Positions 2,959 to 53,142 of a stretch of DNA of 64,000 nucleotides are shown here, in pieces; position 1 is the stretch's first letter; each line of letters starts with the position of its first letter. The notes under the pieces are model-generated. The model had not been told where the DNA came from. It searched no databases and was given only the letters and a program-made list of their open reading frames with translations. The stretch is from an uncultured Bacteroidaceae bacterium (GTDB lineage Bacteria > CAIWAD01), in NCBI GenBank assembly GCA_964345075.1, contig CAYFPS010000001.1, forward strand, positions 133,726-197,725, read 5' to 3'. Made by a program: the position numbers and the translations under genes.

Positions 2959-4143
2959 CTACATGTGCGGGTCGGGATCGACGGCCTCGTCATAGTTGAC
3001 GCCAGCCACGCCGAAGCCAAACAGGCGCAGGAAATCCTTGTGATAGGCATGCACATCGCAGAAGTCGGCCGCATTGTCCTCTCGAATCAGCTCCCAGCGG
3101 CGCTTGACTTCAGCCTGCACCTCTTCACGCATCTCCCAGTCGTCAATCCGAATGCGATTGCGCTCATCCAGTGTGGGCCTTTTGCCTTCGCCAGCGTGTT
3201 CGGCAAAGAGCCGGATCATCTGCTCGATGGTGTCTTCGTGCAGGCCCTTTTCCTTCATCACATCAAAGACAAGCGAGATGTACATCGAAATGCCGGGAAT
3301 GGCTGAAGAGCTCTGTGTTACAACGGACTTGGCCACAACCGTGTGACACCAGCCGCCAACGCTCTCGTTCATTCGCTGATTGAGGTGGTCGCAGGTGGCC
3401 TCCAGGTGCAGCTTGGCCTGTCCAATTGTGCCGTCGCGGTAAATCGGCCGTGTGACATCCGGCCCGATGTAGGAAAAGGCCATCACCTTGGCCTCTGGTG
3501 CCAGCAGGCCCTCTTCCAGCAGGCGCTCGGTCCAGCGCTCAAGATCTTCGCCACCCATCACCTTGATGGTGTGGGCAATCTCTTCTTCAGTGGCGACTTC
3601 GTAAATGCCCTCACTGACATCACCCGTGCGCGTGTCCAGCATCTTGGTCGTGACCTTGGAGCCAATGGCCTTCAAGCTGCTGGTGTAGACATCGCCCGTC
3701 TCCGGGTCCGTCCGGCGCGGGGCCGCCAGAGAGTAGACGAGGTAGTCGATCGGCCCCCAGGCGCGGAGCATGGCAACCACATCTTCCAGCACTTCGCGGC
3801 TGAAGGCGTCACCCATAATGGTCTCGGCCTTGAGTCCTTTGGCGCGCGCCTCCTGATGAAAGGCCGCCGTGTTGTACCAGCCAGCACTGCCCGAGCGCTT
3901 GTTCTTGGGCGGGCGCTCGAAGGCCACGCCCAGCGTGTCCATACCCAGACCGAAAGCGCCCGTGATGCGAGCGGCCAGTCCGTATCCCATGGAAGATCCC
4001 AGCACCAGCATGCGCCCGCCACGCTTCACGGATGAAGCTTCGGCAATCTCGATCTGCCTGCGGATTTCGCGCGCGCAGCCTTCCGGGTGGGCGGTCGTGC
4101 AGATGAAGCCGAAGACTTTCGGCTTGATGACGATTTTTTCCAT
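2959..4143 (-). CDS. fabV: trans-2-enoyl-CoA/ACP reductase, FabV family
   Basis: MEKIVIKPKVFGFICTTAHPEGC... matches the FabV N-terminus. Length is about 394 aa and SDR-like motifs are present. Start ATG is at 4143. Confidence 0.85.
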   Translation of the reverse strand: MEKIVIKPKVFGFICTTAHPEGCAREIRRQIEIAEASSVKRGGRMLVLGSSMGYGLAARITGAFGLGMDTLGVAFERPPKNKRSGSAGWYNTAAFHQEARAKGLKAETIMGDAFSREVLEDVVAMLRAWGPIDYLVYSLAAPRRTDPETGDVYTSSLKAIGSKVTTKMLDTRTGDVSEGIYEVATEEEIAHTIKVMGGEDLERWTERLLEEGLLAPEAKVMAFSYIGPDVTRPIYRDGTIGQAKLHLEATCDHLNQRMNESVGGWCHTVVAKSVVTQSSSAIPGISMYISLVFDVMKEKGLHEDTIEQMIRLFAEHAGEGKRPTLDERNRIRIDDWEMREEVQAEVKRRWELIREDNAADFCDVHAYHKDFLRLFGFGVAGVNYDEAVDPDPHM

Positions 4144-4496
4144 GCTCTCTTCCTGTGATACAAAAAGCCCCGGCGCGCGTACGGATTCCGGCCAGCCGAG
4201 CTGGTCATGAATGTCCTCAGTACCGTCGGGGAGTGTCAATCAAGTCTGCAAGGTAGGGATTTGGCGGCTCAATGGGCGGGATTATTGACCTAGAGTGCTA
4301 TAATGGTCCAAATAAACCGGAAAGTGTAACCCATCCTCCCGGCTCGTTCACATGTTTTCTGGGCAAACAGCCCGCCACGGCTCGCGAAGAGTTGAAGTTC
4401 AGACCTTAGCAAGCATAGAGCACAAAACATGGTGTCAAGTTCATCTCGAATGAGAAAGAAATCAGTGCTGCAAGAGTCTTCGATTGCGCAAAGTCA

Positions 4497-7400
4497 ATGC
4501 TGCATTCTGTAACACTTAGAGCTTACATATCTTTCTTAACGGTATTCCTGGGCTTCTCCACCGCTTACCCCTTAGAGCATTATAGAGACATGATTGGCTA
4601 TAACAATGAATTCTATGGGGCAAATTTATTTGGCATCGATGAGTTTGAGTATTGTGGGACTGTATATGACTTTACAAAAGACGTTGGGAACTGGACGTGT
4701 ATTGGCGTGAGTTGGCATGTTGCTGAATCTGGCAACAGTAATCTGACTGGCGATTTTCATTTGGAGCGATATGATGCGTTGCTTGACAGCGCTCTCGCCA
4801 GAGATCTCAAGGTTGTAATGATTCTTTCAGGCACTCCATATTTGGCATCGATCCCTGAATTTAGAGGCGATGAAGAGCTTTACTCAACTTCAGCGATTTA
4901 TCTTGAGACTGGGCCTTCCGGAGACACTCTCGCCGTTGAAAGGTGGAGAGAGTTTTGTGCAGAAGTTGCTGGGCGGTATTATCCGCGTGTTAAGCACTTT
5001 CAAATAGGAAATGAGGTCAACTACCAAGAGTATTATCGCTACGCGGATGAGACATTCACAGCAGTCTCTGGCCACTATCTACCGTATTCCGACTATCTTG
5101 CGATGGGTTCTCATGCAATGCAGGAGATTGGAGATGCCATTGCTCAAGGCGTTGATTCACTGGTTAACAAACCTCTCAAGATTCTCGCAGGAGGGTTGTT
5201 TGCTTCGACAGAAACAGAGTATTTCCAAACAGGCACACCCAGGATCGTTGCTGCTGTCGACTATTTAGAATCATTGTATGACTATGCTAGCAACAACACA
5301 TTAGATCCTGATGAGTACTTTGATATTGTATCCTACCATCCATATGGTCGATTTGAGCTTGAGCTTTTCACGAATAATGTTTTGCTAGAACATGAGCAAA
5401 ACACCTTCCTCGAAACTGAAAACATACATCAGTTGATGGTGGCCAGAGGAGATTCGGAAAAAGAAATCTGGGGGACAGAATGTGGTCCGCCATTGGAATG
5501 TGCCGCTGCGGCGTCGCAAATGACACTGGAGACTCAAGCACTTTGGGCAGACCAGTATTTGCAAATGTGGACCAATTGGACTTTTACGGGACCTTTGTTC
5601 TGGTGGTGTCTTCGGGAGCAAGTTCGCCATAATCCTGATTCCGACAGCCTGATGAATTGCTGGGGAGCAATGGATTCGGATTGGACGTTTCGTCCCGCCT
5701 ATCACGTCTGGCATGCCTGGGGCAACTCGAGTACGGAACGAATGGATCTTCACATCGGAGAAGGCCCCGACTTCTTGTATCACGCGTGGGACGATGCGTT
5801 TGAACACCGTTTTCAGCTGGAAGCAGCAAATAGAGACACGGTTCGGGTCTACATTCATGCCTCCGATTCCCCAATCTTCGTGCAATCGCCCACTGTTATT
5901 GGTGTGGGGCCAACATCTATCGAGGTCATCGGGGTTACGGGATCGCCTTCCGAGATGGAGGAGGCGCTGGCAGGACAGGTTGTGCTTGAAGCCGTGGGAA
6001 ACCTTGGGCATCTCCCTTTTCTGACAGTTCTTGATTCTGCGACAAATCTCACGCTTGAAAATCTGACGCTTCAGGGCTTTGGTGAAGGAGAAGACCTGAA
6101 TTACCGCGAGCTGATGACTTTTGGCCACTGTGTTCATTTTTCAGGGAAGGCGCTGCACATTGATAATTGCCGCTTCCTTGATAACGGGCTTGCCTCTTTC
6201 AATAGCGAGCATGGACTCTGGGATGGCTTTGGGCCTGTTCTTTTCGTAGACGGCTCAACCAGTTGCCTGCATGTTGAGAACAGCCTCTTTGTGGGAAATG
6301 AGTCCGGCTGTCAGCCGGGTGCCTGTCTTGTTGCCCTGAATGCGGACAGCCTGACCTTGCTGTCCACTACGTTTCACGACAATACGATCAACATCTATTA
6401 TCCGGGAAGAAACGAAGATGCCGAATGCGGCCCCGCTATTGATCACGCTGTTTCCGGTCATGCCATCCATGTGATTCAGGCGCAGCATACTGCCATTAAA
6501 GGCTGCCTGTTTACAGGCGAGTATCCCGGCGGAGAATGGGATTCCGGCCGGCTTCCTCAGTTCGACATTCAGGCTGGTAGCGGCCAGGTGAGCTTCAGCG
6601 CCACGGATCAGGATGGGTGGGCAAGTGATCAGCAAGCCTTTCCAGAAGCCTTGGGGAATGTGGTTGTGCCTCATGCAGAATCGGAAGTGCGCATTGGCTA
6701 TGTGGATGCTGACAACCGTGACTTCCGCCTTCGCCAGAACAGTGAACTGCTGGACAGGGGGGATCCCAACCCGGAAAAGAAAAACTTCGATCTTACACGC
6801 TCGGACATCGGCTGGACACCCAACTATCAGGTGATTGAACTCGGAGCTTATGCGCAAGGCCCCTTGTCTGCTGGATTCTACGAGGTCAGCGGCCCGGTTT
6901 GCGCAATCAATCATGACATTGCAGCTGGAGCCGTGATTCGTGTGCACGAGGGTAGCTTGCTACAAATCCTCACCTCCGCTGGCAGCAATCGGCGTATCGG
7001 GGATCTTGACGGCCCGCGTACAGCCATTGTCGGACGTGGTTCACAAGTCGGAGCGCCGGCTGCTGGAATTGAGCTGCTGAATGTGTCGAGCGATAGCAGC
7101 CTGCTCTTGGAAGGTGTGTTGTTCAACTACGCTCCACGCTCTTATGACCAGAGCGGACATGGTGCTTCCCTTCATATCTACGACAGTGGCCATGCGGACA
7201 TCCTCTCCGTGTCTTTTGACCACGTCAGCTTTGAAAACTACGTGAATGTGCCTGATCCCGATGGCCAAGCTTATGACGGGAGTCTCTTGTTTCGTGACTG
7301 CGAGGCTACGCTTTCCGGCCTGGATGTGGGAGATGCAAACGGGGATCGATACGGTATCGGGCAACTTCAATTGGTCAATTCCAATGTGCGTGTGGAGGCC

Positions 7401-8804
7401 AGCACATTTATCCCAACTGCTCGGAGCATTCTGTCAGGTGAACCGGCCTTGAAGATCCACGGTGTGCTAGCAGGGGGCGAGACGGAATTGGTGGACAACA
7501 CCTTCCATGGACTACCGGGTAGTATGAGCGACCCGATTCTGCTGGATATCACGGGAAGCACGGTCCGGATGGAGGGCAACCAGTTTCTGGATCTGCGAAA
7601 CACGGCCCTGATTGAGTCCAATTCCAGCCTCTATCTGGATCGAGAAGCAAGGAATCACTTCCAGGCCTACATGTATCCTGATTCTTTCGACAATAACGCA
7701 CCCTTGCTTGCAATGGAATCCGGCAATCTGGATCTTTTCTGTGGCCGCAACAACCTGATAGTGAATGCATACAGTGGAAGCTGGCCGGTTATTTCCTGGC
7801 AAGTGGCCAATCCGGAAACTTTGCAGACGGTACCCCAGGTGTGGCGGGACAATTTTTGGGGGACGGACTGCGTTGCTGGAATTCCTCCAGGAGACCTTGA
7901 ATCACTGAATCTGATCCCAGTCTGGGCTACGCTTGAAAGCACCCTGGATGCGTGTGTCACGCCCTTGGATCCCGCCAATCCGCTTTGCCCCTTTACCGCG
8001 TATGAACCCTACGAGCTTCTGGTTGCGGGTAAGGACGCAGAAAAGAATGGGGACTTTGCGCTGGCCCATGTGAACTATACGGCACTCCTGCACCTTTATC
8101 CGCTGGCCAAGGAAGTCAACGACGGAACACTTCGCCTGAAAGCCGTCGGGCTGGACAAGACCTACGGCCCGCTCCATGTCGAATCGGTTCGGGATGACCT
8201 TTTCATTGCCGCAGATTCAACGGAAGCAAACAAGCGTCACTCGCTGTCCATTTTGCAGCTTTGCTCCGGTTGGTGCACGGCAGCGCGCTGGGGAGATCGT
8301 GCGAGCGCCATTGCAGCGCTTGAAGGCCTGCTAACCGTGGAACCGAATCCGCTCTGCCGGGATACGATCAACCGGGCGCTGCTTGAAATCGCTACCTACC
8401 CCCCGCTTGAGGGAGCTTTGCTGGCGGCTTCTCCGGAAGCCAGACTGAATCGGGCCATCCAGGAAGGCCGGGCGGTATCCGCACTTTTGTCCTACAGGCG
8501 AGGAAGCGAACTGACAAGTGAAGTGAGTCTGCTGCTGCCCACGGAGTTCGCCATCACCCGGATCTACCCGAACCCCTTCAATCCAACGACCACCATCGAG
8601 CTGGCGCTACCCAACGAGCAGCACGTTCGCGTCCGGATCTACAACATGCTGGGCCAGCTGGTGGCAGAAGTCCTGAATGAGAACCTGACAGCGGGAACGC
8701 ACAACCTCATTCTCGATGGCTCGCGCAATGCAAGTGGTGTCTACCTTGCGAGAGCAGAGAGTCAGGGATTGACGAAGATCAAAAAGTTGCTGCTCTTGAA
8801 ATGA
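4497..8804 (+). CDS. Giant secreted protein with an N-terminal clan GH-A (TIM-barrel glycoside hydrolase-like) domain, right-handed parallel beta-helix repeats, and a T9SS C-terminal sorting domain.
   Basis: Signal peptide. HFQIGNEVN (the GH-A acid/base NE motif) and WGTECG. Many PbH1-like repeats (NCRFLDNG, SLFVGNESG, TFHDNTINIY). The C-terminus IYPNPFNPTTTIELALP...VRIYNMLGQLVAEVL...GVYLARAE...KKLLLLK is a T9SS C-terminal sorting domain. Low-GC coding sequence. Confidence 0.75.
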   Translation: MLHSVTLRAYISFLTVFLGFSTAYPLEHYRDMIGYNNEFYGANLFGIDEFEYCGTVYDFTKDVGNWTCIGVSWHVAESGNSNLTGDFHLERYDALLDSALARDLKVVMILSGTPYLASIPEFRGDEELYSTSAIYLETGPSGDTLAVERWREFCAEVAGRYYPRVKHFQIGNEVNYQEYYRYADETFTAVSGHYLPYSDYLAMGSHAMQEIGDAIAQGVDSLVNKPLKILAGGLFASTETEYFQTGTPRIVAAVDYLESLYDYASNNTLDPDEYFDIVSYHPYGRFELELFTNNVLLEHEQNTFLETENIHQLMVARGDSEKEIWGTECGPPLECAAAASQMTLETQALWADQYLQMWTNWTFTGPLFWWCLREQVRHNPDSDSLMNCWGAMDSDWTFRPAYHVWHAWGNSSTERMDLHIGEGPDFLYHAWDDAFEHRFQLEAANRDTVRVYIHASDSPIFVQSPTVIGVGPTSIEVIGVTGSPSEMEEALAGQVVLEAVGNLGHLPFLTVLDSATNLTLENLTLQGFGEGEDLNYRELMTFGHCVHFSGKALHIDNCRFLDNGLASFNSEHGLWDGFGPVLFVDGSTSCLHVENSLFVGNESGCQPGACLVALNADSLTLLSTTFHDNTINIYYPGRNEDAECGPAIDHAVSGHAIHVIQAQHTAIKGCLFTGEYPGGEWDSGRLPQFDIQAGSGQVSFSATDQDGWASDQQAFPEALGNVVVPHAESEVRIGYVDADNRDFRLRQNSELLDRGDPNPEKKNFDLTRSDIGWTPNYQVIELGAYAQGPLSAGFYEVSGPVCAINHDIAAGAVIRVHEGSLLQILTSAGSNRRIGDLDGPRTAIVGRGSQVGAPAAGIELLNVSSDSSLLLEGVLFNYAPRSYDQSGHGASLHIYDSGHADILSVSFDHVSFENYVNVPDPDGQAYDGSLLFRDCEATLSGLDVGDANGDRYGIGQLQLVNSNVRVEASTFIPTARSILSGEPALKIHGVLAGGETELVDNTFHGLPGSMSDPILLDITGSTVRMEGNQFLDLRNTALIESNSSLYLDREARNHFQAYMYPDSFDNNAPLLAMESGNLDLFCGRNNLIVNAYSGSWPVISWQVANPETLQTVPQVWRDNFWGTDCVAGIPPGDLESLNLIPVWATLESTLDACVTPLDPANPLCPFTAYEPYELLVAGKDAEKNGDFALAHVNYTALLHLYPLAKEVNDGTLRLKAVGLDKTYGPLHVESVRDDLFIAADSTEANKRHSLSILQLCSGWCTAARWGDRASAIAALEGLLTVEPNPLCRDTINRALLEIATYPPLEGALLAASPEARLNRAIQEGRAVSALLSYRRGSELTSEVSLLLPTEFAITRIYPNPFNPTTTIELALPNEQHVRVRIYNMLGQLVAEVLNENLTAGTHNLILDGSRNASGVYLARAESQGLTKIKKLLLLK

Positions 8805-8832
8805 GAGACAAGAGCCAACTGCTGGAGCCACT

Positions 8833-11319
8833 ATGAATCAAAGTATCTGGGTTCTTTTGCTTGCCCTTCAAGGAATGGCTGCCGTAATTCATGTGCCGGA
8901 GGACCAACCCACCGTTCAGCTGGGTCTTGATGCCACGGCCCCAGGTGATACGGTGCTTGTTGCGCGAGGCACCTACCAGGAGCTGCTCACAAGTCCCGAT
9001 CACAGCTTCACACTCATCTCGAACTTCCCATTTACTCAAGACTCGATGGATATTGTGGAGACGGTGTTGGACGGAGACTATGGAGGCTGCATTCTTTTCA
9101 TCGCATTGAATGATGGCGAAACGGCCAAAATTCAAGGCTTCACCTTTCAACACGGAATGGGAGCTTATGAAGGCAGCTATTATCGAATCACAGGGGGTGC
9201 GATTCAATTCTTCGTTCCTGTGTTGGAGGAACGTGCTTCGAATTTGGTCTTGATGGACTGTGTATTCCAAGAAAATAGTTCCGTTTCCGGCGCAAGTGTG
9301 ATTTACGTTGGGGGTGAGGGTCCATGGCCAGCTTATGGTTCAATGAACTTCTCACGGCTGCACTTTGAAGATTGCGAGGATCCCGAAGAATCCAATTATG
9401 CAAGCATTGAGATTCGCGCCCATTCTTCAGAACAGTTGTTTGAGGACTGGATATTTGATGCCGGCACATCTTCGGTTGATCCCGTTCGATTGAATCTGGA
9501 TCCGGACTCGCTCGTTGTCCGGCGGATTACACTGATCAACGGGAATGGAGGAGCTTTCGGTTGTACCATTGTACCCACTGTTGAACATGGTGCCCTGTTT
9601 GAGAATCTCCGAACGGCCTCGTTCAACGGATTGCTTGGAACACGAATCAGCATGGGTATAGGTGCATCAAACAGGGAAAACCGAGCAGCAATCTGCACGA
9701 TTCGCAACATAGAGGTGGATGGTACAGGGTGGGGCGGATTGTTTGTCAATGGGAGTGAGGCTGGACCAAGGCTCCATTTCGATGGCCTTCACCTGCACCA
9801 TATCACGGGGCCTGGGGTTCTAGGTGCTTTTGGAGGCGATGCAGGTGCTGCTTTACACGGAGAACTTCGAAACCTGCATGTGCATCACAATGTGGTGGGT
9901 GACAGTGTCAGTCTCTTCGGCAGTATTGTAGCAGAATTTGGGTTGAGTATCTACGATGCTCACATCCATGACAACACCGTGATCATTCCACCTCACCCGA
10001 ATCCAGGTGGAACAGGTGCTGGTGGGAATCATCTGGACGGACCGATCCTGTCGACCTTTGGGCCTCATGTGGATCAGGCTCTTCACTACGAAAACATCAC
10101 ACTGGAAAACAATACGGTGATTGATTTGGACGATTACAGTGATCCCTTTCCAGAACATGCATACAGGGAGAACATCGCACGTGAGTTTCATTTTGTGCTA
10201 GCTTGGGATGACACCACGTACGTGAAGAATATCACCATTCGCCATAGCAGACAGCCCAACCATTGCCCTGAGATCTACATTCCAGAAAACTTCGAGAAAA
10301 GCAATCCTGGTTATGTTATGGGGCAATATGCGCGGCATCTCGTTGCTGAGAATATCCTCCTTGAGGATTGTGACGATGGTGGTCTGCTGGCTGGAGGTGC
10401 ATCTGTTTCTCTGGACAATGTGGTCTTGAGAAATGTTGCTCGTGTCGGGCTTATCATGGGCGCAGGGATTGCCCGAAATGTGCTGATTGACGGAACAGTA
10501 GCGAAGGACGACTGGCTGCATCTTACACCAGGCTTTGAGAATCTGACGTACCAGGCCGCGATCTTCAAGACAGACGTTGCCAACGTCTTTGAAAACCTCA
10601 CCATCACGAATTGTGACAGCATGCGGGCTCTGATTCAGGAGCATTCGCTTAACGGGAGCCAGGCACTTGTGTTCCGCAATGCAATCATTGCAGGCAACAC
10701 GTACGACTACCTGTTCGAAGACATCGATGCCTCAAGAATCACCTGGGAGAACTGCTTTGTGCAGGAAGCCGTTGCTGGTGATGGGAACATCATCGGCCAG
10801 GATCCTCTGTTTGATCCAGAGTTTGGACCCCCTTTTCTATCACCAGAGTCACCCTGTATCGATGCTGGAAATCCAGAATCTGTCTACAACGATGTCGAAG
10901 ATGCTGACAATCCAGGTTGGGCCAGGTGGCCTTCCCAGGGCGGATTGCGAAATGACATAGGTTTTTTCGGTGGGCCGGGCGTGGACAGCCTGGCAGTCGA
11001 TTGGCTGCCTGTAATGCCCCAGGATCCTGTGATACAGCCAAAGCATTTTGTGCTTGGCGATCCTTACCCGAACCCCTTCAATCCTGTAACACGGATACCC
11101 TTCACACTTGAAAGCACCTCCCGTGTGACAATGCGAGTCTATAATCTACGAGGTCAGCTTGTCCGGCATGTGGGGTCATCGCTTTTTGGCGGCAGCTACT
11201 ACACGGCGGGCAGTCACGAGCTTGAGCTGGACGGTAGCCGATTGGCCAGCGGCGTGTATGTTGTGGAGATTCAGGCAGGGGAGCTTCGGGAAGTGCGGAA
11301 GGTTGTGCTGCTTAGATGA
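8833..11319 (+). CDS. Secreted right-handed beta-helix repeat protein with T9SS C-terminal sorting domain
   Basis: Signal peptide MNQSIWVLLLALQGMAAV. Beta-helix repeats (GNGGAFGCTI, IHDNTVII, LENNTVI). C-terminus DPYPNPFNPVTRIPFTLESTSRVTMRVYNLRGQLV...GVYVVEIQAGELREVRKVVLLR. Low-GC body. Confidence 0.75.
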   Translation: MNQSIWVLLLALQGMAAVIHVPEDQPTVQLGLDATAPGDTVLVARGTYQELLTSPDHSFTLISNFPFTQDSMDIVETVLDGDYGGCILFIALNDGETAKIQGFTFQHGMGAYEGSYYRITGGAIQFFVPVLEERASNLVLMDCVFQENSSVSGASVIYVGGEGPWPAYGSMNFSRLHFEDCEDPEESNYASIEIRAHSSEQLFEDWIFDAGTSSVDPVRLNLDPDSLVVRRITLINGNGGAFGCTIVPTVEHGALFENLRTASFNGLLGTRISMGIGASNRENRAAICTIRNIEVDGTGWGGLFVNGSEAGPRLHFDGLHLHHITGPGVLGAFGGDAGAALHGELRNLHVHHNVVGDSVSLFGSIVAEFGLSIYDAHIHDNTVIIPPHPNPGGTGAGGNHLDGPILSTFGPHVDQALHYENITLENNTVIDLDDYSDPFPEHAYRENIAREFHFVLAWDDTTYVKNITIRHSRQPNHCPEIYIPENFEKSNPGYVMGQYARHLVAENILLEDCDDGGLLAGGASVSLDNVVLRNVARVGLIMGAGIARNVLIDGTVAKDDWLHLTPGFENLTYQAAIFKTDVANVFENLTITNCDSMRALIQEHSLNGSQALVFRNAIIAGNTYDYLFEDIDASRITWENCFVQEAVAGDGNIIGQDPLFDPEFGPPFLSPESPCIDAGNPESVYNDVEDADNPGWARWPSQGGLRNDIGFFGGPGVDSLAVDWLPVMPQDPVIQPKHFVLGDPYPNPFNPVTRIPFTLESTSRVTMRVYNLRGQLVRHVGSSLFGGSYYTAGSHELELDGSRLASGVYVVEIQAGELREVRKVVLLR

Positions 11320-11562
11320 GCTTGTCCCTCTGCTAACAACTAGCTGCACTGTGTTCCCGGCTTGTCCCGGTCACGCGCCTTCGGCAAAGAGCAGCTGTCC
11401 ATAACGCTTAACAGTCAACCACTTCCCTTACAGGGCCTCGCCTTTTCTCCTCTTTCAGGCCCCGCAGAGCCTTTCGGCAATTGCGAAAAAGGGGAGATAT
11501 TTCCAATTTTTTAACAATTCAGTCTTGAACACGGACTGGCCGAAAGCGAAGGACTTGCCAGC

Positions 11563-12885
11563 ATGAGTGATGATCAGGTAAGGGTTGACGCAATTGTCGT
11601 GGGTGCCGGCCCGGCTGGGCTGGTCGCGGCGCTCACCATGGCCCGTCAGGGGCTTGAGGTCATTGTGGTTGAGCGCGGTGAAAGTGCTGGCTCAAAAAAT
11701 CTGGGCGGCCTGCTCTACGGCACCGTGCTGGAGGAACTGCTGCCCGGCTTTCACAAGGAGGCCCCTGTTGAGCGCGCCGTTGTCAGGCGCCGCGTCTGCT
11801 ATCTGGGCAAGGGCGACCAGTTCCATCTGGACTTCGGGCGCGAGGCCTGGGGTCAGGAGCCCTATAACCATACATGGACCGTTCATCGCAGCGCCTTTGA
11901 CCGCTGGCTTGCCGGCAAAGTCGAAGAAGAGGGCGTCGGCCTGGTTGAAGGCATGCTGGTGGAGGATCTGCTTTACGAGGGCGAAGGCCCGGCACGCAAG
12001 GCCTGCGGTGTAAAGCTGGCTGGTGATGAAGTCTTTCATGCGGATCTGGTAATTCTCGCCGATGGCGCGCACAGCCTGGTCACGAAAAAGGCTCGCCGCG
12101 AACTGGGAATTGAAGGCCCCGCGCCCCAGCACTTCGCCCTTGGGGTGAAGGAGACCATTTCGCTTCCCGCCAAAGTCATTGAAGACCGCTTTGCCCTGGA
12201 TGAAAAGACGGGTGCAGCCTTTGATTACATCGGTGCCCCTTTTGAAGGGCTGATTGGCGGCGGCTTCATTTACACGCAGAAGGAAACGGTTTCCATCGGC
12301 ATGGCAGCGCGGATTGACACGCTCAAGGATGCCGGACTGGAGCCACCGGAAGTCATGGAGCGCTTTCGCAGTCACCCCGAAATCCGTCACCTGCTAAAGG
12401 GCGGTGAGCTGCTGGAATACGGGGCGCACATGATTCCCGAAGGCGGGTTTGACTCCCTTGCGCCTTTCTGCGGTAACGGAGTAATGATCGCCGGCGATGC
12501 CGCCGGACTGGTCAATATGAGCCTTTACAAGGAAGGCACGAATCACGCCATGTTCTCCGGCAAGCTGGCGGGTGAATGCGCCGTAAAGGCAAAGTCCGCC
12601 GGTGACTTCAGCCGGCAGGGATTAAGCGCTTACGAGAGCGGCATGCTGGCCAGCGCGGCTGTAGCCGACCTGAAGAAGTACCGCGAACTGCCCAGACTGA
12701 TGGAAGAGCTGCCGGAGGTGCTTAACCAGTACCCCGAAAAGCTGGCACGGCTGCTGGCCGACTACTTCACCATCTCCTCCGAGCCCAAGGCTGTAACACA
12801 GGCCCGGGCACGGGGCGACTTTTTTAGTGGACTCTCGAAACTCAAGCTGGCGCGGGACCTCTTAAAAGCCCGCAAGCTGCTTTAG
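11563..12885 (+). CDS. fixC: FixC-type electron-transfer-flavoprotein:quinone oxidoreductase (FAD-dependent)
   Basis: IVVGAGPAGLVAALTMARQGLEVIVVERGE FAD-binding motif. About 440 aa. Followed by fixX-etfB-etfA. Confidence 0.85.
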   Translation: MSDDQVRVDAIVVGAGPAGLVAALTMARQGLEVIVVERGESAGSKNLGGLLYGTVLEELLPGFHKEAPVERAVVRRRVCYLGKGDQFHLDFGREAWGQEPYNHTWTVHRSAFDRWLAGKVEEEGVGLVEGMLVEDLLYEGEGPARKACGVKLAGDEVFHADLVILADGAHSLVTKKARRELGIEGPAPQHFALGVKETISLPAKVIEDRFALDEKTGAAFDYIGAPFEGLIGGGFIYTQKETVSIGMAARIDTLKDAGLEPPEVMERFRSHPEIRHLLKGGELLEYGAHMIPEGGFDSLAPFCGNGVMIAGDAAGLVNMSLYKEGTNHAMFSGKLAGECAVKAKSAGDFSRQGLSAYESGMLASAAVADLKKYRELPRLMEELPEVLNQYPEKLARLLADYFTISSEPKAVTQARARGDFFSGLSKLKLARDLLKARKLL

Positions 12886-14957: not shown

Positions 14958-16652
14958 ATGGCTACCAGTGAAAATTTCTATCTGGACAATCAGGACTTGC
15001 GCTTTGTGCTCGAGGAAACTGTGGACTGGGCTTCCCTGCTCAAGCTGCGCGGTGATGTCGACGGGGCGGAGTCGCCCTTTGACAGTGTGGACGAGGCGCG
15101 CGAGGCTAACATCGACATGCTGACCGATCCCGTAGGCAGCTTGTCCGCTCAGCGCATTGCGCCCCGCGCCGAAGAGGTGGATCATCTGGGCTGCAGGCTC
15201 GAGAATGGTCAGGTTGTCTTTCCGGAGCCCATTCAGCGCAACATGGACGACCTGAAGGAAGCCCAGCTGATGGGCCTGACCATCGACCCGGCCTACGGCG
15301 GTCTGGGATTTTCCAAGACCTTCTATACTGCCGCCACCGAACTGATCAGTCGCGCCGATGCCAGCCTGATGAACTACTTCAGCCTGCAGGGCATTGCCGA
15401 GACCATCCAGCACTTTGCTGACGATGACATCAAAGAGCAGTACATCCCGGCCATGGCAACCGGTGAGCTTTCCGGCGCCATGGTGCTGACCGAGGCCGAT
15501 GCCGGCAGTGATCTGGGTGCTGTTCGCACCAAGTCGGAGCTGGAAGCCGAGCAGGATCCCGCCACCGGCGAATGGTTCATCACTGGTGCCAAGCGCTTTA
15601 TCACCAACGGCTGCGGTGATGTTCTGCTGGTGCTGGCCAGAAGCGAAGATCCTGCCAAGTACGGTGGCAGCCGCGGGCTTTCCTTCTTTGTAACACAGAA
15701 GAGCGAGCGCGTGCAGATTCGCCGCATTGAGGAGAAGCTGGGCATCCACGGAAGCCCAACCTGCGAGATCTATTTCGATCACGCGCCGGCCAGACTGATT
15801 GGTCGCCGTGGTCGTGGTCTGATCAAGTATACGGCCTGGCTGATGGCTGAAGCCCGTCTGGGAGTGGCCGCACAGTCGGTTGGCATCGGTGAGGCGGCAC
15901 TGCGTGAGGCGCGCATTTATGCCGATGAGCGCGAGCAGTTTGGCAAGCCGATTCGCGAACTGCCTGCAGTGGCCAGCATGCTGGCTGACATGCAGATGAT
16001 GACGGAAGCCTCGCGCGCCCTGCTCTACGATACGGCCTATTATGTGGATCTGAACGAGGCCGCCGAGAAGTTCGAGCGCAAGGACGAGATGAAAAAGTAT
16101 GGCCGGCTGGCTGACCTCTTGACGCCCATGGTCAAGTATTACGCCGCTGAACTTTGTAACACGGTCACCTATCAGGCGATTCAGGTGCATGGCGGCAATG
16201 GCTTCATGAAGGACTACCCGGTCGAGCGGCTCTACCGCGATGCTCGTATCACAAATATCTACGAAGGCACCAGCCAGATTCAGATCGAGTGGGCCATCAT
16301 GCGGCTGCTCCGTGGCGAGAGCGCCTCACTGCTGGATCCGAAGGAAAGCCAGTCCTTTGAGAACAGCGAGCTGACCGCCTTTGCCGATAGCCTGAAGCAG
16401 GCGCGGGCCGGGCTGGAAAAAGCCATCGTCCATGTCAAGGCTGGTGGTAACGAGCGCCGCGACCTTGAGGCCAGGCGGGTAGTGGACATGACCCTCGATC
16501 TCTATGTCGGCTGGCTGCTGCTGAAGCAGGCCTCGATCAAGGCCGAGAAGCTGAAGCTCGTGCGCCGCTACATGGCAACTGCCATGCCCCGTTTCCGCAT
16601 GAATCACGAAATGGTCATGGCCGGCCGCACGCTGGAGATGGAGCAGCTCTGA
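14958..16652 (+). CDS. Acyl-CoA dehydrogenase (long form with C-terminal extension)
   Basis: ACAD motifs (ITGAKRFITNG, YRDARITNIYEGTSQIQ). 564 aa. Start codon overlaps the etfA operon junction. Confidence 0.8.
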   Translation: MATSENFYLDNQDLRFVLEETVDWASLLKLRGDVDGAESPFDSVDEAREANIDMLTDPVGSLSAQRIAPRAEEVDHLGCRLENGQVVFPEPIQRNMDDLKEAQLMGLTIDPAYGGLGFSKTFYTAATELISRADASLMNYFSLQGIAETIQHFADDDIKEQYIPAMATGELSGAMVLTEADAGSDLGAVRTKSELEAEQDPATGEWFITGAKRFITNGCGDVLLVLARSEDPAKYGGSRGLSFFVTQKSERVQIRRIEEKLGIHGSPTCEIYFDHAPARLIGRRGRGLIKYTAWLMAEARLGVAAQSVGIGEAALREARIYADEREQFGKPIRELPAVASMLADMQMMTEASRALLYDTAYYVDLNEAAEKFERKDEMKKYGRLADLLTPMVKYYAAELCNTVTYQAIQVHGGNGFMKDYPVERLYRDARITNIYEGTSQIQIEWAIMRLLRGESASLLDPKESQSFENSELTAFADSLKQARAGLEKAIVHVKAGGNERRDLEARRVVDMTLDLYVGWLLLKQASIKAEKLKLVRRYMATAMPRFRMNHEMVMAGRTLEMEQL

Positions 16653-16676
16653 TCGCAGACTCAGATTCCAAGCAAA

Positions 16677-16706
16677 AGAGCGCCGGTGATGGCGCTCTTT
16701 TTTTGT
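16677..16706. terminator. Rho-independent terminator, bidirectional, between the convergent acd and DUF975 genes
   Basis: AGAGCGCC ggtgat GGCGCTCT gives a perfect 8-bp stem, followed by TTTTTTT. Confidence 0.7.
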
Positions 16707-34296: not shown

Positions 34297-37200
34297 CTAC
34301 TTGACCAGCAACATCTTCTCCACCGCGCTTCCATAAGCGCTTTCCACACGCAGCACATAGAGTCCGGCCGGACGACCCGCCATGTCCAGTGATACATTGT
34401 GGCTGCCAGCATTCAGCCCGGCAACCAGCTGCCGCTCGACACGCTGTCCAGCCAGATTGTATACGGCCAGCTCGACATCGCCCATGGCTGGCATGCTGAA
34501 GGCCACAGTGGTCGTGGGGTTGAAGGGGTTCGGGTAAAGGCCCGTCAGCTCAAAGCGCCCGGGAAGGGACTTCGGATCACTGACATCATTAAAGTCCGCC
34601 GTGCCGCCCGCATCATGATAGCGCTGGGCGAACTCCTGCAGGTACTGGTTGGCAATCAGGTTGTCGTGTATCACAACCAGATTTTCGTCGTTATCGTATT
34701 CGGCACTGTTGGACCAGTTGTAGCTGCCCGTGATCACCATTGGATCGCTGCCGGGCTCTTCAGCATCAATGATCATGTACTTGTGATGCAAAATGCCCGT
34801 GCCCGCATCGGTGAAGATATCGGCACCCCAGGCCTGCATTAGCGCGTACTCGCTGTACTGGTCGCCCTCGTCATCAAACACACCACGCACGGCCGCGCCG
34901 CGATCAAAGGCATCGTTCATGGCGTAATTCAGCTCGTTGCGTGTAAAGACCAGAATGCAGAAGTAGATGGACTCTTCAGCCGTGTCGATGTAGTTGACCA
35001 GACGCTGGCTGACATTGTCGCCCTGGCTGAAAAGCACTTCAACAGGCACACCGCCTACCGTGAAGTACTTGGGCGTGTTGTTCGTCTTGTAGGCGCCGTA
35101 GCGTGCCTCGGTGGGATCAGGCGTCATGCCCGCGCTGCCCCACATCTCATTGAATTCCATCGTATACGCACGCGCCACGGCCTGATCGGCAATCAACACA
35201 CTGTTCTGCTTGGCCCAGATGCCGTAGCTGCTGGGTTCATCAATCAGGTTGAGGCTGCCCGTCCAGACACGGTCATTGGCAGGATCATCGTCGGCAGCGT
35301 CAACCACGATGAACTTGTTGTGCTGAATTCCGGCACCCGGGTGGGTACCAAAGTGATTGTCGATCACGGTCACACCGGCGTTTTCAATCTGGGCCACTTC
35401 GCCCTGACTGTGATCGGCATCATAGATGAAGCGCACGGCCACACCGCGATCGTGTGCGTCAATAATCGCCTGCGCGATCTCAAAAATGTTCAGGCTGTAG
35501 ATGGCGCAGTCGAGACTGACCGTCGCTCCATCAATCAGGTTGATGATCTCACTCAAGACATCGTGATCGCCGTTGGCTTCGTTGCCGGGGAAGGCATAGG
35601 CCGGGTCCACATCCTGTGTAAAGAAGACCTCGATGGTACCGGGGCTGCCGGCGGACACGGTCGAAAACCAGTAGGTGCCGGCCATGCTGGCGCCATCTTC
35701 GTTCCAGGCGCCGATGCGCGCCCAGTAGGGCGTTCCGGCATCAAGGCCGTCCAGGGTCACCTCATGAGTTGTGGTGCTGTTGCCAAGGGCAAGGCTGTCG
35801 AGAATTTCGCCGTCCAGCGTACCGTGTACGACAATGGTTCCACCAGGATTCTGGCTCTGCCAGGAAAGCGTGACGGAACTGGTCGTGTGATCGCTTTCAA
35901 AGGGGCCGGCCGCCAGACCCGGTCCGGCAATCTGAATCTGATCACTCAAAAGACGGGGCTGTAGCTGATAACCACTGGTATGCGGAGCGCTGAAGTCGTA
36001 CTGACCAACCACGCCCACCAGGTCGAACTCACCGGCAGGAATGGGCGCGCCCACCAGCCCGCAGGAAGCATTGATACGAACCGTCGTTGAACCCGTCGCG
36101 TCGCTCACCGAATAGTTTGTATTACCGGCCCAGGTGCCGGAGCCTTCAACCGTGATACCGCTCAGGCGAACCAGCATGCCTTCCCAGGGCTCGCCGGCGG
36201 CACCCTGGTTTTCGATATCGGCGCAGCCCAGCAGTGCAGGCTCAACATCCACGCCAGTAGCGTTGGTGGAAAGAATCGTAGCGGGGGTGAGCTCAACAAG
36301 ACCATTGTAAAGCGTGACCACACCCAGCACGGTCACATCGTCGCCGATGCTCACGGCATTGGAAAAGGCGAAATCGTAACACACGATGCCGCCCGTTGCG
36401 TCCTGCATGTAGGAGGCGCTGCCCAGCTGATTGGAGGCCGTGACCACACCGCGAACCACAACCGTTTCGCCCAGCAGGTAAGGAATACCGTTGGTGTCGT
36501 TGTTATGCAGTTCGGCGATTTCGATCGGGTCGCCGATCACATTGATCACGGGCGGGGTACCGATAATGGAAGGAACACCGCCCTCAACGGCCGTACGCAC
36601 GGCAATTGTATACGGACCGCTCGCGGTGGTAAAGGAAACCTGTGTCAGCTCGAAAGTCCCGGAAACACCCGTATTCACGGTCGATCCCGTCACACGCCAG
36701 GTATCACCGTCCTGCTCCAGGCTGGCTCCGGAAAAGCCGTCACCGCTCAAGTTGACCTCGGCAGCCGACCAGCCCGCGGGCAGCTCAAGCTCGATGGTGG
36801 GCAGCAGGTATTCGCCGCCCGTAATTGTCACATCAAAATCCTCAGGGCCGGGCGCGTAGAGTTGAGCCACGCTGCAGGTGGCCGTTCCGGAACCATCCGT
36901 CAGCGGCTCGTCCGGCTCGGGCGTCGAGCTCGAGTTCTGCGGATTGGAATTACCCAGGGCGTGTATCACAAAGTCGGCTGCGTTGTTGCCGCTATCCCAG
37001 GCGTTTCCTTCAAGACTGTGCGCGCCACCGGCCACCATGTCGGCCAGCGTCGAGTTTTCAAAGGCCTTGCGCTCAAAGGATGCGCCGCGCTCGTGAGCAT
37101 CCAGCCCAGTGCCCTCGGGAGAGTCTGCAGCCAGCCAGCCCACGCGGTCGATCTCTTCCTGTGAGCCATTGATGATGCGCACATGGCCGCCGCTGTTGCC

Positions 37201-37524
37201 CAGTCCCATGGCAACGGTAAAAGGATAGTCAGGCGTGGTCTCGGTGGATGTGCCGCCAATCAGCAGGAAGCTGTGCGGGCCAATCTGCGCTCCAGCGGCA
37301 AAGGTCTGCTTGTCCAGCCAGCTGTCGCCGGTGGAGGACTTGTACTGCAGCTTCCAGCCGCTCATGTCCACACTGAAGTTGGTTGGATTGTAGAGTTCGA
37401 CAAACTCTTCCAGCACAAGCGAGGTCTCGTAGAAGCGAAGCTCGCTGATCACCGGGTAGTCGGCCATCTGGGCCAGAAGGGGGCCGGCCACCATCAGTCC
37501 GGCAAGCAGGGGAAGTGTCTTCAT
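34297..37524 (-). CDS. Secreted lamin-tail-domain / phospholipase-D (HKD) superfamily protein with T9SS C-terminal sorting domain. Candidate extracellular nuclease or phospholipase.
   Basis: Signal peptide. N-terminal lamin-tail-like region (LYNPTNFSVDMSGWKL). Two HKD motifs (IQHNKFIVVD, ILHHKYMIID). C-terminus GLYPNPFNPTTTVAFSMPAMGDVELAVYNLAGQRV...VEKMLLVK. Confidence 0.75.
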   Translation of the reverse strand: MKTLPLLAGLMVAGPLLAQMADYPVISELRFYETSLVLEEFVELYNPTNFSVDMSGWKLQYKSSTGDSWLDKQTFAAGAQIGPHSFLLIGGTSTETTPDYPFTVAMGLGNSGGHVRIINGSQEEIDRVGWLAADSPEGTGLDAHERGASFERKAFENSTLADMVAGGAHSLEGNAWDSGNNAADFVIHALGNSNPQNSSSTPEPDEPLTDGSGTATCSVAQLYAPGPEDFDVTITGGEYLLPTIELELPAGWSAAEVNLSGDGFSGASLEQDGDTWRVTGSTVNTGVSGTFELTQVSFTTASGPYTIAVRTAVEGGVPSIIGTPPVINVIGDPIEIAELHNNDTNGIPYLLGETVVVRGVVTASNQLGSASYMQDATGGIVCYDFAFSNAVSIGDDVTVLGVVTLYNGLVELTPATILSTNATGVDVEPALLGCADIENQGAAGEPWEGMLVRLSGITVEGSGTWAGNTNYSVSDATGSTTVRINASCGLVGAPIPAGEFDLVGVVGQYDFSAPHTSGYQLQPRLLSDQIQIAGPGLAAGPFESDHTTSSVTLSWQSQNPGGTIVVHGTLDGEILDSLALGNSTTTHEVTLDGLDAGTPYWARIGAWNEDGASMAGTYWFSTVSAGSPGTIEVFFTQDVDPAYAFPGNEANGDHDVLSEIINLIDGATVSLDCAIYSLNIFEIAQAIIDAHDRGVAVRFIYDADHSQGEVAQIENAGVTVIDNHFGTHPGAGIQHNKFIVVDAADDDPANDRVWTGSLNLIDEPSSYGIWAKQNSVLIADQAVARAYTMEFNEMWGSAGMTPDPTEARYGAYKTNNTPKYFTVGGVPVEVLFSQGDNVSQRLVNYIDTAEESIYFCILVFTRNELNYAMNDAFDRGAAVRGVFDDEGDQYSEYALMQAWGADIFTDAGTGILHHKYMIIDAEEPGSDPMVITGSYNWSNSAEYDNDENLVVIHDNLIANQYLQEFAQRYHDAGGTADFNDVSDPKSLPGRFELTGLYPNPFNPTTTVAFSMPAMGDVELAVYNLAGQRVERQLVAGLNAGSHNVSLDMAGRPAGLYVLRVESAYGSAVEKMLLVK

Positions 37525-51879: not shown

Positions 51880-52938
51880 TTACTTGACGAGGACCATCTT
51901 GCGGGTCTCGCCCATTCCAGCGGTTTCCAGGGTGTAGAAGTACACGCCGGAAGCCATGTTGCTGGCGTCGAAGACCACGCTGTGCTGGCCTTCCTCAACC
52001 AGACCGTCCACCAGGGTGGCCACATTGCGACCGGACAGGTCAAAGACGCGCAGGGCGGCTTCTCCGGTGGCGGGCACCATGTAGTTGATGGTGGTGGTGG
52101 GGTTGAAGGGATTCGGCACGTTCTGGGCCAGCTCGAAATTACCGGGCAGGACATTCGAGTCTACCGTCTGATCATGTTCGTCGGTGATCGTGAGGCAGAT
52201 GTCGTCGATGTACTGGTAGCCGCCATACATGGCGAAGCCACCAAAGCCGAGGTAACCGGTGGAGGGGCCGTTCACGGGCGTCCAACCGACAACTTCAACT
52301 TCAGCCAGGAACTCGAAGAGGTCAACCTTGACCATGTTGTACAGGTCGTCATAGCGCACGCGCAGCAGGTGGAAATTGCTGTCGAAGACAGGAATCACAT
52401 AGTTGCCCACGTGGCCGTTGAGGTCGTAGATGTCAAGGAAGGTGCTGGCAGTGTTCGTGCCACCCACGCGGGTGATGACGAAGGACAGGCCGCTGACGCT
52501 GGTGGCGCTCATCGGCTCGGCAGTCAGCTGCGTGTCGCTGATGTAGTAGCCGAGCGCGTCGGCATCACCCTGGGCAGCGAAGTAGAAGGTCATGTCCAGC
52601 ACGCGGTCTGTCCAGTCCTTCATGTCCGGATTCTGCAGGTAGGTGGCCGGAGCAAAGGCACCGCTGTTCATGCCGGAGGTCATGCGCATGACATCGAAGC
52701 TCTCGATGAGCGTCGGGTCCTGCGTGGTGAAACCGGGGAACAGTTCGTAGGTGCTGCCGGGCATGCAGAAACATTCGTTCCAGGCATTGTCGGCATCCAG
52801 AGTCGTGCTGATGTAGGCACCCGGGTGGAAGGGGAAACCGACATCGTGACCGAAGTCGGGATCCGTCACCGGATTGTCAGCGAACGCCACAACGGCCATC
52901 GTGACCGACACCGTAAGCAGCGTAGCAAAGCGCTTCAT
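51880..52938 (-). CDS. Secreted protein of unknown function with T9SS C-terminal sorting domain
   Basis: Signal peptide MKRFATLLTVSVTMAVVAFA. C-terminus NVPNPFNPTTTINYMVP...LRVFDLSGRNVATL...GVYFYTLETAGMGETRKMVLVK. Confidence 0.7.
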   Translation of the reverse strand: MKRFATLLTVSVTMAVVAFADNPVTDPDFGHDVGFPFHPGAYISTTLDADNAWNECFCMPGSTYELFPGFTTQDPTLIESFDVMRMTSGMNSGAFAPATYLQNPDMKDWTDRVLDMTFYFAAQGDADALGYYISDTQLTAEPMSATSVSGLSFVITRVGGTNTASTFLDIYDLNGHVGNYVIPVFDSNFHLLRVRYDDLYNMVKVDLFEFLAEVEVVGWTPVNGPSTGYLGFGGFAMYGGYQYIDDICLTITDEHDQTVDSNVLPGNFELAQNVPNPFNPTTTINYMVPATGEAALRVFDLSGRNVATLVDGLVEEGQHSVVFDASNMASGVYFYTLETAGMGETRKMVLVK

Positions 52939-53142
52939 GGGAAACCCCCTTAACATTGTTCGCAACGGATCCATGCGCACGAACCCCACCGTTTAAAGGG
53001 TACGCGAGCGACCTCGTCGCCAGACACCATTTGTTTTCGACTGTTTGTTAAGAGAGGTGGGCTTGATTGCTAATTCGAGTGCAAAGAAAAGCTTCTTGAA
53101 GCTGATTGTCAACTCAAAAAGAGACTTTCTCAAAGCTGTGCA

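Follow-up and report, generated by a model that had tools for sequence, protein, structure and literature searches.

PslG of Pseudomonas aeruginosa, a GH39 endoglycosidase that cleaves the biofilm exopolysaccharide Psl, consists of a single domain and is located in the periplasm or anchored to the membrane; its gene belongs to an exopolysaccharide (EPS) biosynthesis operon. Other glycan enzymes adopt a beta-helix fold, among them the PL6 alginate lyase AlyGC, the AlgE4 and AlgG epimerases, RbmB, pectate lyases, GH28 enzymes and the depolymerases of phage tailspikes. In Bacteroidota and the Fibrobacteres-Chlorobi-Bacteroidetes (FCB) group, the type A cargo of the type IX secretion system (T9SS), such as the gingipains, mirolase, and the chitinase and glycoside hydrolases of Flavobacterium, carries a C-terminal sorting domain (CTD). 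Integrase-less islands are known from intergenic hotspots, regions of genome plasticity that homologous or illegitimate recombination fills. Here we describe a low-GC island of two large genes, ORF1 and ORF2, at positions 4240-11562 of a 64,000-nt stretch of contig CAYFPS010000001.1 (hereinafter, the window), and compare it with these systems. We read the region, with a probability of about 0.7, as a recombining accessory two-gene cassette that occupies a hotspot between fabV and fixC in an uncultured bacterium of the FCB group that probably uses type IX secretion.

A two-gene insertion at a variable fabV-fixC site

The island consists of two open reading frames (ORFs) on the forward strand, ORF1 (4497..8804; 1435 aa) and ORF2 (8833..11319; 828 aa), both confirmed at the lengths given in a preliminary description of this DNA that was made from the letters alone. 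In seven relative contigs, fabV and fixC are adjacent, divergent and 290-350 bp apart (L088, with FixC 77% identical to that of the window, and L003, L005, L048, L050, L051 and L074, with 62-68%); these contigs usually continue with fixX-etfB-etfA-acad, and in L048 the same radical-SAM gene (rSAM) precedes fabV. The adjacency of fabV and fixC in the relatives implies that the pair is an insertion, which interrupts the conserved order rSAM-fabV|fixC-fixX-etfBA-acad. The preliminary description had proposed this synteny comparison, and had set against its own view the prospect of orthologues with similarly low GC at the same locus in relatives; the site is instead empty or filled with other cargo, and the low-GC orthologue is found at a different locus. 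A metagenome scan with FixC yielded additional empty-site contigs, with no relative closer than 68% and no near-identical empty site.

In the close relatives of the window (L086, L087 and L092-L097; FixC ~98% identical, 93-95% nucleotide identity from fixC to acad, and the same abundant octamer, see below), similarity to the window always ends immediately before fixC. The point of divergence is window position 11411 for L087, L092 and L095, with 93-95% identity beyond it and unrelated sequence upstream, and 11364 for L094, with 94% identity beyond and, as cargo, a Fic gene plus a MazE/Fic pair. Near-identical backbones thus hold three or more different cargos at this site, which identifies it as a strain-variable hotspot.

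The same cassette is found at another locus. Contigs L042-L046 and L001 carry an orthologous pair (1447-1449 and 825 aa; 75-77% identity) between PhoD-like and GT1 genes, and in L042 this pair is low in GC as well (0.52 versus 0.58-0.62; GC content at third codon positions, GC3, of 0.53-0.56 versus 0.61-0.72). On either side of the L042 pair lies one copy of a direct repeat of 210 bp (5237-5446 and 12568-12777; 98% identity) that comprises the 3' end of the PhoD gene together with the 3' end of the GT1 gene. This repeat is a target duplication, unusually long for an element without a recombinase, and would fit Campbell-type integration of a circular intermediate with homology to the target. 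On its 3' flank, the L042 copy is followed by 24-45 nt of fixC-locus sequence, and the last 24 nt of the shared stretch are also present in L094 beside a different cargo; judging from this match, part of the fixC locus seems to have moved together with the L042 copy.

More distant homologs occur in other genomic settings. In L089, which belongs to an unrelated host (GC 0.69, i.e. ~70%; GC3 0.85-0.93; no octamer), the composition drops sharply at a pair whose members match ORF1 aa 682-1424 and ORF2 with 38% identity (GC 0.39-0.60; GC3 of the two genes 0.53 and 0.68). Within this pair, at 9799-9996, a frame change separates the CTD from the rest of the ORF1-like gene; a 57-aa ORF was called there, and the tblastn match continues in another frame. 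This could represent gene decay after the transfer or a sequencing error. The octamer-bearing contig L047 encodes a solo homolog of ORF2, with GC3 of 0.57 versus 0.65-0.78 in the neighboring genes. In L090, a pair with 36-37% identity and without the GH39 head of ORF1 follows 1.5 kb of AT-rich sequence (37-40% GC) and a transposase of the IS1595 family (observation at L090 358-1122 and 1501-3000). The two genes are adjacent in five contexts (the window, L042, L002, L089 and L090; 29-77% identity), and this persistent pairing argues for a functional unit.

Base composition and the octamer

The GC content of 4240-11562 is 51.9%, compared to 59.0% in the rest of the window (window mean, 58.2%), and five 1-kb windows within the island are at 0.49-0.54, with none below 0.547 elsewhere. 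The profile in 300-nt steps falls from ~0.60 in fabV to 0.42 at 4450-4750 and stays at 0.42-0.48 up to ~5650; beyond this point it rises to 0.50-0.57 and reaches the host level (0.58-0.61) at 8050-8650, then drops again to 0.47-0.53 in ORF2 and recovers past 11500. The preliminary description had put the drop at 62% to 45-50%; the drop is real, but the figures were overstated, with flanks at 58-60% and an island that is uneven, at 42-60%. The string it quoted as an example is the start of ORF1 at 4497. It had named genome-wide variance of GC as a possible objection; within the window, no other stretch contains 1-kb windows below 0.54.

The GC3 of ORF1 and ORF2 is 0.551 and 0.515, respectively, compared to 0.690 +/- 0.043 for the 44 other ORFs in the window (z = -3.2 and -4.0), and GC at second codon positions is the same as in the host ORFs; hence, the GC drop is synonymous. 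In scans of the window, codon-usage misfit flags the same stretch and tetranucleotide distance flags this stretch only, so that the island stands out in both the sliding-window GC and the codon-usage checks that had been suggested. The segment with the lowest GC is the GH39 head of ORF1 (GC3 0.44), which is also the exchanged part (see below); the N-terminus of ORF1 is at 42% GC, and its C-terminal part (8200-8650) is host-like, at up to 60%. We also considered whether the protein family as such might be low in GC, and rejected this idea because GC3 is 0.74-0.79 in the copies of L002 and L090. The window encodes two further T9SS-CTD proteins on the reverse strand (34297-37524 and 51880-52989), with host-typical GC3 of 0.71 and 0.80, which suggests that the host natively uses the T9SS route; one of the two contains PLD-like, lamin-tail and DUF5689 domains.

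The octamer GTGATACA is the commonest in the window, with 67 copies in 64 kb versus 0.7 expected (at 158, 311, 627 ... 63489; about 1 per kb). It is non-palindromic, and 65 of the 67 copies are intragenic; they occupy several reading frames, occur in both orientations and show no polarity. A word search locates only two copies in the island, at 5776..5783 on the reverse strand and at 11029..11036 on the forward strand. The scarcity reported in the preliminary description, two copies with ~7 expected, thus holds in its positions, with ~8 expected (7.7-8.4; binomial p = 0.014 for a pre-defined region), and becomes weak once scanning is allowed for: under random placement, 45% of the trials yield some 7.3-kb window with two or fewer copies, and a gap this large arises in 21%. 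We downgraded the octamer argument for this reason. The depletion is repeated in L042 (1 copy in the 6.9-kb pair versus 12 in 15.6 kb of flanks); it is supportive, although weak as stand-alone evidence and not decisive.

The density of GTGATACA is 0.5-0.9 per kb in close relatives, as seen in L042 (0.58 per kb), L047, L086 and L092. The word is absent from the relatives with FixC identity of 77% or less, in which GTGACACA replaces the copy next to the fabV start. GTGATACA could serve as an uptake-signal-like word or as some other lineage-specific one; a literature search on the octamer found nothing relevant.

Mosaic divergence and the origin of the cassette

The divergence between the window and L042 copies is strongly uneven. 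In ORF1, aa 1-400 are ~40% identical and aa 401-1435 are ~92% identical, and the change from one level to the other takes place within a single 50-residue window where the GH39 domain ends. In ORF2, the variable segment is aa 101-350 (9133-9882), with ~50% identity compared to 78-98% elsewhere. The synonymous divergence (dS) is 0.06 for ORF1 aa 401-700, 0.30 for aa 701-1000, 0.41 for aa 1001-1435 and 0.6-0.8 for the conserved parts of ORF2, and is saturated in the variable segments, the heads included; the reference value of 0.19-0.37, for housekeeping genes between the window and L092, applies if L042 and L092 belong to one population, an assumption for which the sole link is co-occurrence in run SRR30352471. 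The ratio of nonsynonymous to synonymous divergence (dN/dS) is 0.15-0.32 for the pair and 0.02-0.13 for the housekeeping genes. The heterogeneous dS points to repeated recombination with a divergent allele pool; the low GC therefore persisted or was renewed by recombination with an outside pool of alleles.

The preliminary description took the island to be a recent horizontal acquisition, and a single transfer from a distant, lower-GC donor that has not yet been ameliorated would account for the low GC3, the aberrant codon and tetranucleotide usage, the two octamer copies in place of ~8 and the interrupted synteny; moreover, L089 shows that the family is transferred between hosts. The insertion, the foreign composition, the strain-specific presence and the low-GC island of L089 all bear out the horizontal component of this proposal. 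What they do not bear out is one recent step: the nearest homologs reside in octamer-bearing genomes (L042) and have equally low GC, dS is 0.3-0.8 over most of the length, equal to or greater than the housekeeping divergence, the divergence is a mosaic that ranges from 0.06 to saturation instead of being uniform, and the C-terminal part of ORF1 already has host-like GC. We therefore consider a single recent acquisition unlikely.

A native, vertically inherited pair, whose low GC3 would stem from weak expression, from relaxed selection on codons or from a mutational bias toward AT in surface genes that evolve fast, fares worse and appears quite improbable. The low GC of the orthologues in relatives, the dN/dS above the housekeeping range and the window borders free of mobility genes, tRNA and repeats are all compatible with such a history, but the empty fabV|fixC site in seven relatives and the other cargo at this site in close relatives argue strongly against it, as do the L042 orthologue at a different locus with a target duplication and the host-level GC3 of the other CTD cargo genes in the window; furthermore, the L089 pair, with GC3 of 0.53 versus 0.9, cannot be native.

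We give very little credence to the view that the island is a chimera of assembly or binning, or what remains of a depolymerase module from a phage or plasmid. In favor of this view, the source is likely to be a contig assembled from a metagenome, many of the related contigs end at precisely this locus, and beta-helix depolymerases and tailspikes are among the structural neighbors. Against it, the fixC-locus sequence at the 3' end of the L042 copy and the sequence that L094 shares with the window from 11364 indicate that the junction is genuine, the CTDs are of the host's own secretion type, and there are no matches in 50,697 phage records, IMG/VR or PHROGs, with a CTD as the only plasmid match. 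Phage, plasmid and defense readings were accordingly dropped after these searches and a PADLOC search that was negative as well.

Predicted products and their secretion

ORF1 comprises a signal-peptide-like N-terminus, a GH39-like head, two beta-rich repeat regions, an alpha-helical region resembling tetratricopeptide repeats (TPR) and a T9SS CTD. The hydrophobic N-terminal stretch, AYISFLTVFLGFSTA, recognized by eye, is part of the protein only with a start at 4497; P0001 (1404 aa), the gene call in the database, begins 31 codons after the first ATG, leaving out window positions 4497-4589, and lacks this stretch. The L042 orthologue has a clear signal peptide (MKYRLPSIILLAFMFSITLMAAQA). Exact-protein look-ups returned no record for ORF1, FixC or P0001.

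The variable head (aa ~40-410; 4614..5726, forward strand) is predicted to be a PslG-like GH39 domain of clan GH-A with an intact catalytic pair. The first 420 residues have 629 phmmer relatives in a library of 1.8 billion proteins, of which the best is only 49% identical; among the 59 top relatives, Pfam matches are to GH5 (35), GH39 (24) and GH42 (13). A profile of these 59 sequences retrieves PslG (5bx9, 4zn2) with E 4.5e-46, followed by GH39 beta-xylosidases, and a profile from the six closest head sequences still places PslG first (E 9.4e-10). In the alignment, the NEP acid/base and TE nucleophile motifs match those of PslG (WNEPN and STEWG), and N172, E173, H281, P282, Y283 and E328 are invariant in both the 59- and the 6-sequence alignments. 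The predicted acid/base is E173 (5013-5015; motif IGNEVN) and the predicted nucleophile is E328 (5478-5480; motif WGTECG). Direct Pfam and PDB sequence searches of the head gave nothing usable, and the homology emerges only through the phmmer library and the profiles; the GH-A-like domain suggested in the preliminary description is thus recovered by profile search, not by direct Pfam search.

The conserved scaffold of ORF1 (5697..8561, forward strand) comprises beta-helix-like regions at aa ~415-700 and 780-1120 and an alpha-helical repeat at aa 1171-1332 (8007-8492). The AlphaFold2 model of aa 401-1355 shows two beta-rich repeat regions and the helical repeat, and the best Foldseek matches are pectin methylesterase, alginate epimerase/lyase and the TPR proteins BamD and YbgF, all with E of 2e-3 or higher. 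Together with a Pfam Beta_helix match of E 0.11, this model makes a beta-helix in ORF1 a weakly supported assignment. The scaffold ends in a T9SS type A CTD (8562..8792, forward strand; PF18962, 44.3 bits; TIGR04183, 42.9 bits; cut-offs 27 and 23 bits, respectively). Around 10 full-length relatives with the GH39-beta-helix-TPR-CTD architecture were seen among 1.8 billion cluster representatives.

ORF2 has a putative signal peptide, with an N-terminus (MNQSIWVLLLALQGMAAV) that by eye looks typical of the Sec pathway, a right-handed parallel beta-helix (aa 18-640; 8884-10752), a disordered linker and a T9SS CTD (aa 745-825; 11065-11307; PF18962, 37.0 bits; TIGR04183, 34.2 bits, both above the cut-offs). 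ORF1 and ORF2 are not paralogues, and the CTD is their sole shared part. Pectate-lyase-like PbH1 repeats had been ascribed to both proteins; a beta-helix is borne out for ORF2 at the level of the fold, by structure prediction, and is weakly supported in ORF1. Pfam Beta_helix (PF13229) stays below threshold on both window proteins (12.6-14.6 bits versus a cut-off of 25.9), and it does match 5 of 19 ORF2 relatives and the L002 partner. A search of PDB sequences with the ORF2 family profile found none at E of 1 or less. The modeled resemblance of ORF2 to PL6 alginate lyase is at the fold level only and does not extend to sequence or catalytic membership in the family; its catalytic residues cannot be mapped, and the protein may have a binding or adhesin role.

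The CTDs on both proteins, above the Pfam and TIGRFAM cut-offs, the GH39 head and the beta-helix together support the earlier suggestion of a secreted, carbohydrate-active pair of cargo proteins. Following the usual T9SS route, both products would be exported by Sec, recognized through their CTDs and released or attached at the cell surface. No gene for the T9SS machinery lies within the window; the octamer-bearing relative L047 shows a weak match to PorV. A literature search on PslG and T9SS found nothing relevant.

Junctions and neighboring sequences

The left host flank is fabV (2959..4143, reverse strand), which encodes an enoyl-ACP reductase (NCBIfam FabV, 509 bits). Its start is the ATG at 4141-4143 (MEKIVIKPKVFGF), not the TTG at 4239, because homology with the relatives begins at aa 35 of the long ORF. 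In the left intergenic region (4144..4496), 4144-~4215 is ancestral fabV-proximal sequence that can be aligned to the empty site of L088. Further on, a promoter-like motif, GGCAAACAGCCCGCCACGGCTCGCG..TGAAGTTCAG..TTAG (4362-4411), recurs in relatives and is unique in the window. Motifs of the form GCCCGCCACGGCTCGCG-N6-8-AGAAGTTCAG-N3-4-TTAG are located 35-110 nt upstream of accessory genes (ORF1 homologs, an FG-GAP protein and Fic), with copies in the window, in L002 (1-50 and 7579-7624), in L094 (~190-235) and in L042 (~5497-5540). The motif may be a promoter or a leader; an Rfam search of the left intergenic region gave no match.

The right junction zone is 11320..11410, as delimited by comparison with L042-L046, L094 and the close relatives. 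Positions 11322-11387 travel with the cassette: the window and L042-L046 are 95% identical over 67 nt past the ORF2 stop and then diverge. The sequence from 11364 on is common to the window and L094, despite their different cargo, and that from 11411 on is common to all close relatives. The right host flank (11411..12885, forward strand) includes the fixC promoter region, with the conserved TTTCCAATTTTTTAACA, and fixC, which encodes an electron transfer flavoprotein (ETF)-quinone oxidoreductase (NCBIfam PRK10015/FixC). In agreement with the preliminary description, which had noted no integrase, tRNA or direct repeat, searches at the borders of the window copy found no tRNA, integrase, insertion sequence (IS), terminator, or flanking direct or inverted repeat.

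The variable stretch upstream of fixC corresponds to 11364-11562 in the window, 1-2160 in L094, 1-176 in L087 and 1-196 in L095, and most related contigs break at this point. The Fic and MazE/Fic module of L094 is 88% identical to the Fic region of L002. An element of ~50 nt (..CCCACTTTTGCACAAATATCGGGACACA..) is located at the fixC-upstream junction in L087 (130-179), L095 (144-196) and L092 (4-46), and at the end of the L002 contig on the opposite strand (9083-9134); the window lacks this element, which may represent a repeat or the terminus of a mobile element. The neighborhood varies at a second point in L092, where ~3.2 kb of extra sequence (5390-8592, versus window ~16650-16705) follows the acyl-CoA dehydrogenase gene and encodes a peroxidase and an IS3-type transposase (HTH_Tnp_1 and rve).

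Interpretation and comparison with known systems

If the region is indeed a recombining accessory cassette, ORF1 would be a modular glycan depolymerase, with a PslG-like, retaining GH39 endoglycosidase head mounted on a beta-helix/TPR-like/CTD scaffold, and ORF2 would be its beta-helix partner, of the fold class of polysaccharide lyases, hydrolases and epimerases. Together, they would bind and cut an extracellular polysaccharide, the candidate substrates being the bacterium's own matrix, the matrix of a competitor or an environmental EPS. Having no recombinase of its own, the cassette would be spread and reshuffled by host recombination, through which the catalytic head and part of ORF2 appear to have been exchanged for very divergent alleles; the low GC3 would then reflect foreign, pooled ancestry rather than one recent acquisition.

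Several observations weigh against this interpretation. The window copy has neither repeats nor mobility genes, its left junction can be placed only within ~4215-4362, so that the mechanism of insertion is deduced indirectly, and none of the close relatives recovered has an intact contig on the fabV side. The ordinary GC3 of the L002 and L090 pairs means that low GC is not universal in the family, and the dS comparison depends on the assumption of a shared population. With respect to the products, the model of the middle region of ORF1 is mediocre (pLDDT 70, pTM 0.50), and no Pfam or NCBIfam glycoside hydrolase model passed on the head itself, the best match being DUF5722 (E 0.035).

A bolder version of the cassette model, which we regard as a long shot, is a "swappable-head" system, in which the conserved T9SS scaffold receives divergent GH39 heads at the domain boundary and the cassette hops between hotspots, possibly by natural transformation, with GTGATACA as a candidate uptake signal. 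The proposed exchange of heads resembles the change of specificity in phage tailspikes. The locus illustrates a way in which an uncultured bacterium of the FCB group diversifies the glycan-degrading proteins that it secretes, with the head swapped and the secretion scaffold kept. If the heads determine substrate specificity, such loci would constitute a natural library of PslG-related enzymes that degrade EPS or biofilms. As a genomic feature, the locus is in other respects a standard accessory island that opens no new biological category.

Among the systems mentioned at the outset, PslG is the best solved relative of the ORF1 head and is matched over the whole TIM-barrel domain. The ORF1 domain differs from it in forming the N-terminal part of a T9SS cargo protein of 1435 aa, with beta-helix and TPR-like regions behind it, in its low sequence identity, in the absence of a Pfam GH39 match on ORF1 itself and in having no EPS synthesis genes nearby. 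ORF2 shares the fold of the beta-helix glycan enzymes (for PL6, AlyGC 5gkq and 8bwk) without a sequence-level relation to any solved chain. Like known type A cargo, both ORFs pass the PF18962 and TIGR04183 cut-offs, and the CTD of ORF2 superposes on that of mirolase (8qb1); in contrast to such cargo, the architecture of ORF1 is rare, the host belongs to an uncultured lineage outside Bacteroidia, and the window contains no T9SS machinery gene.

With regard to mobility, the region has the atypical composition and the absence or variability among strains that define genomic islands, and the window copy lacks their mobility hallmarks. The kind of element, a genomic island with carbohydrate-active T9SS cargo, is already known, and its protein families are uncharacterized and rare. 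With the integrase-less islands of intergenic hotspots the cassette shares the atypical composition, the broken synteny, the alternative cargos and the occurrence of the same cassette at another locus, and it differs from them in the exceptional length of the target duplication in L042 and in the strong intragenic mosaicism with a breakpoint at a domain boundary.

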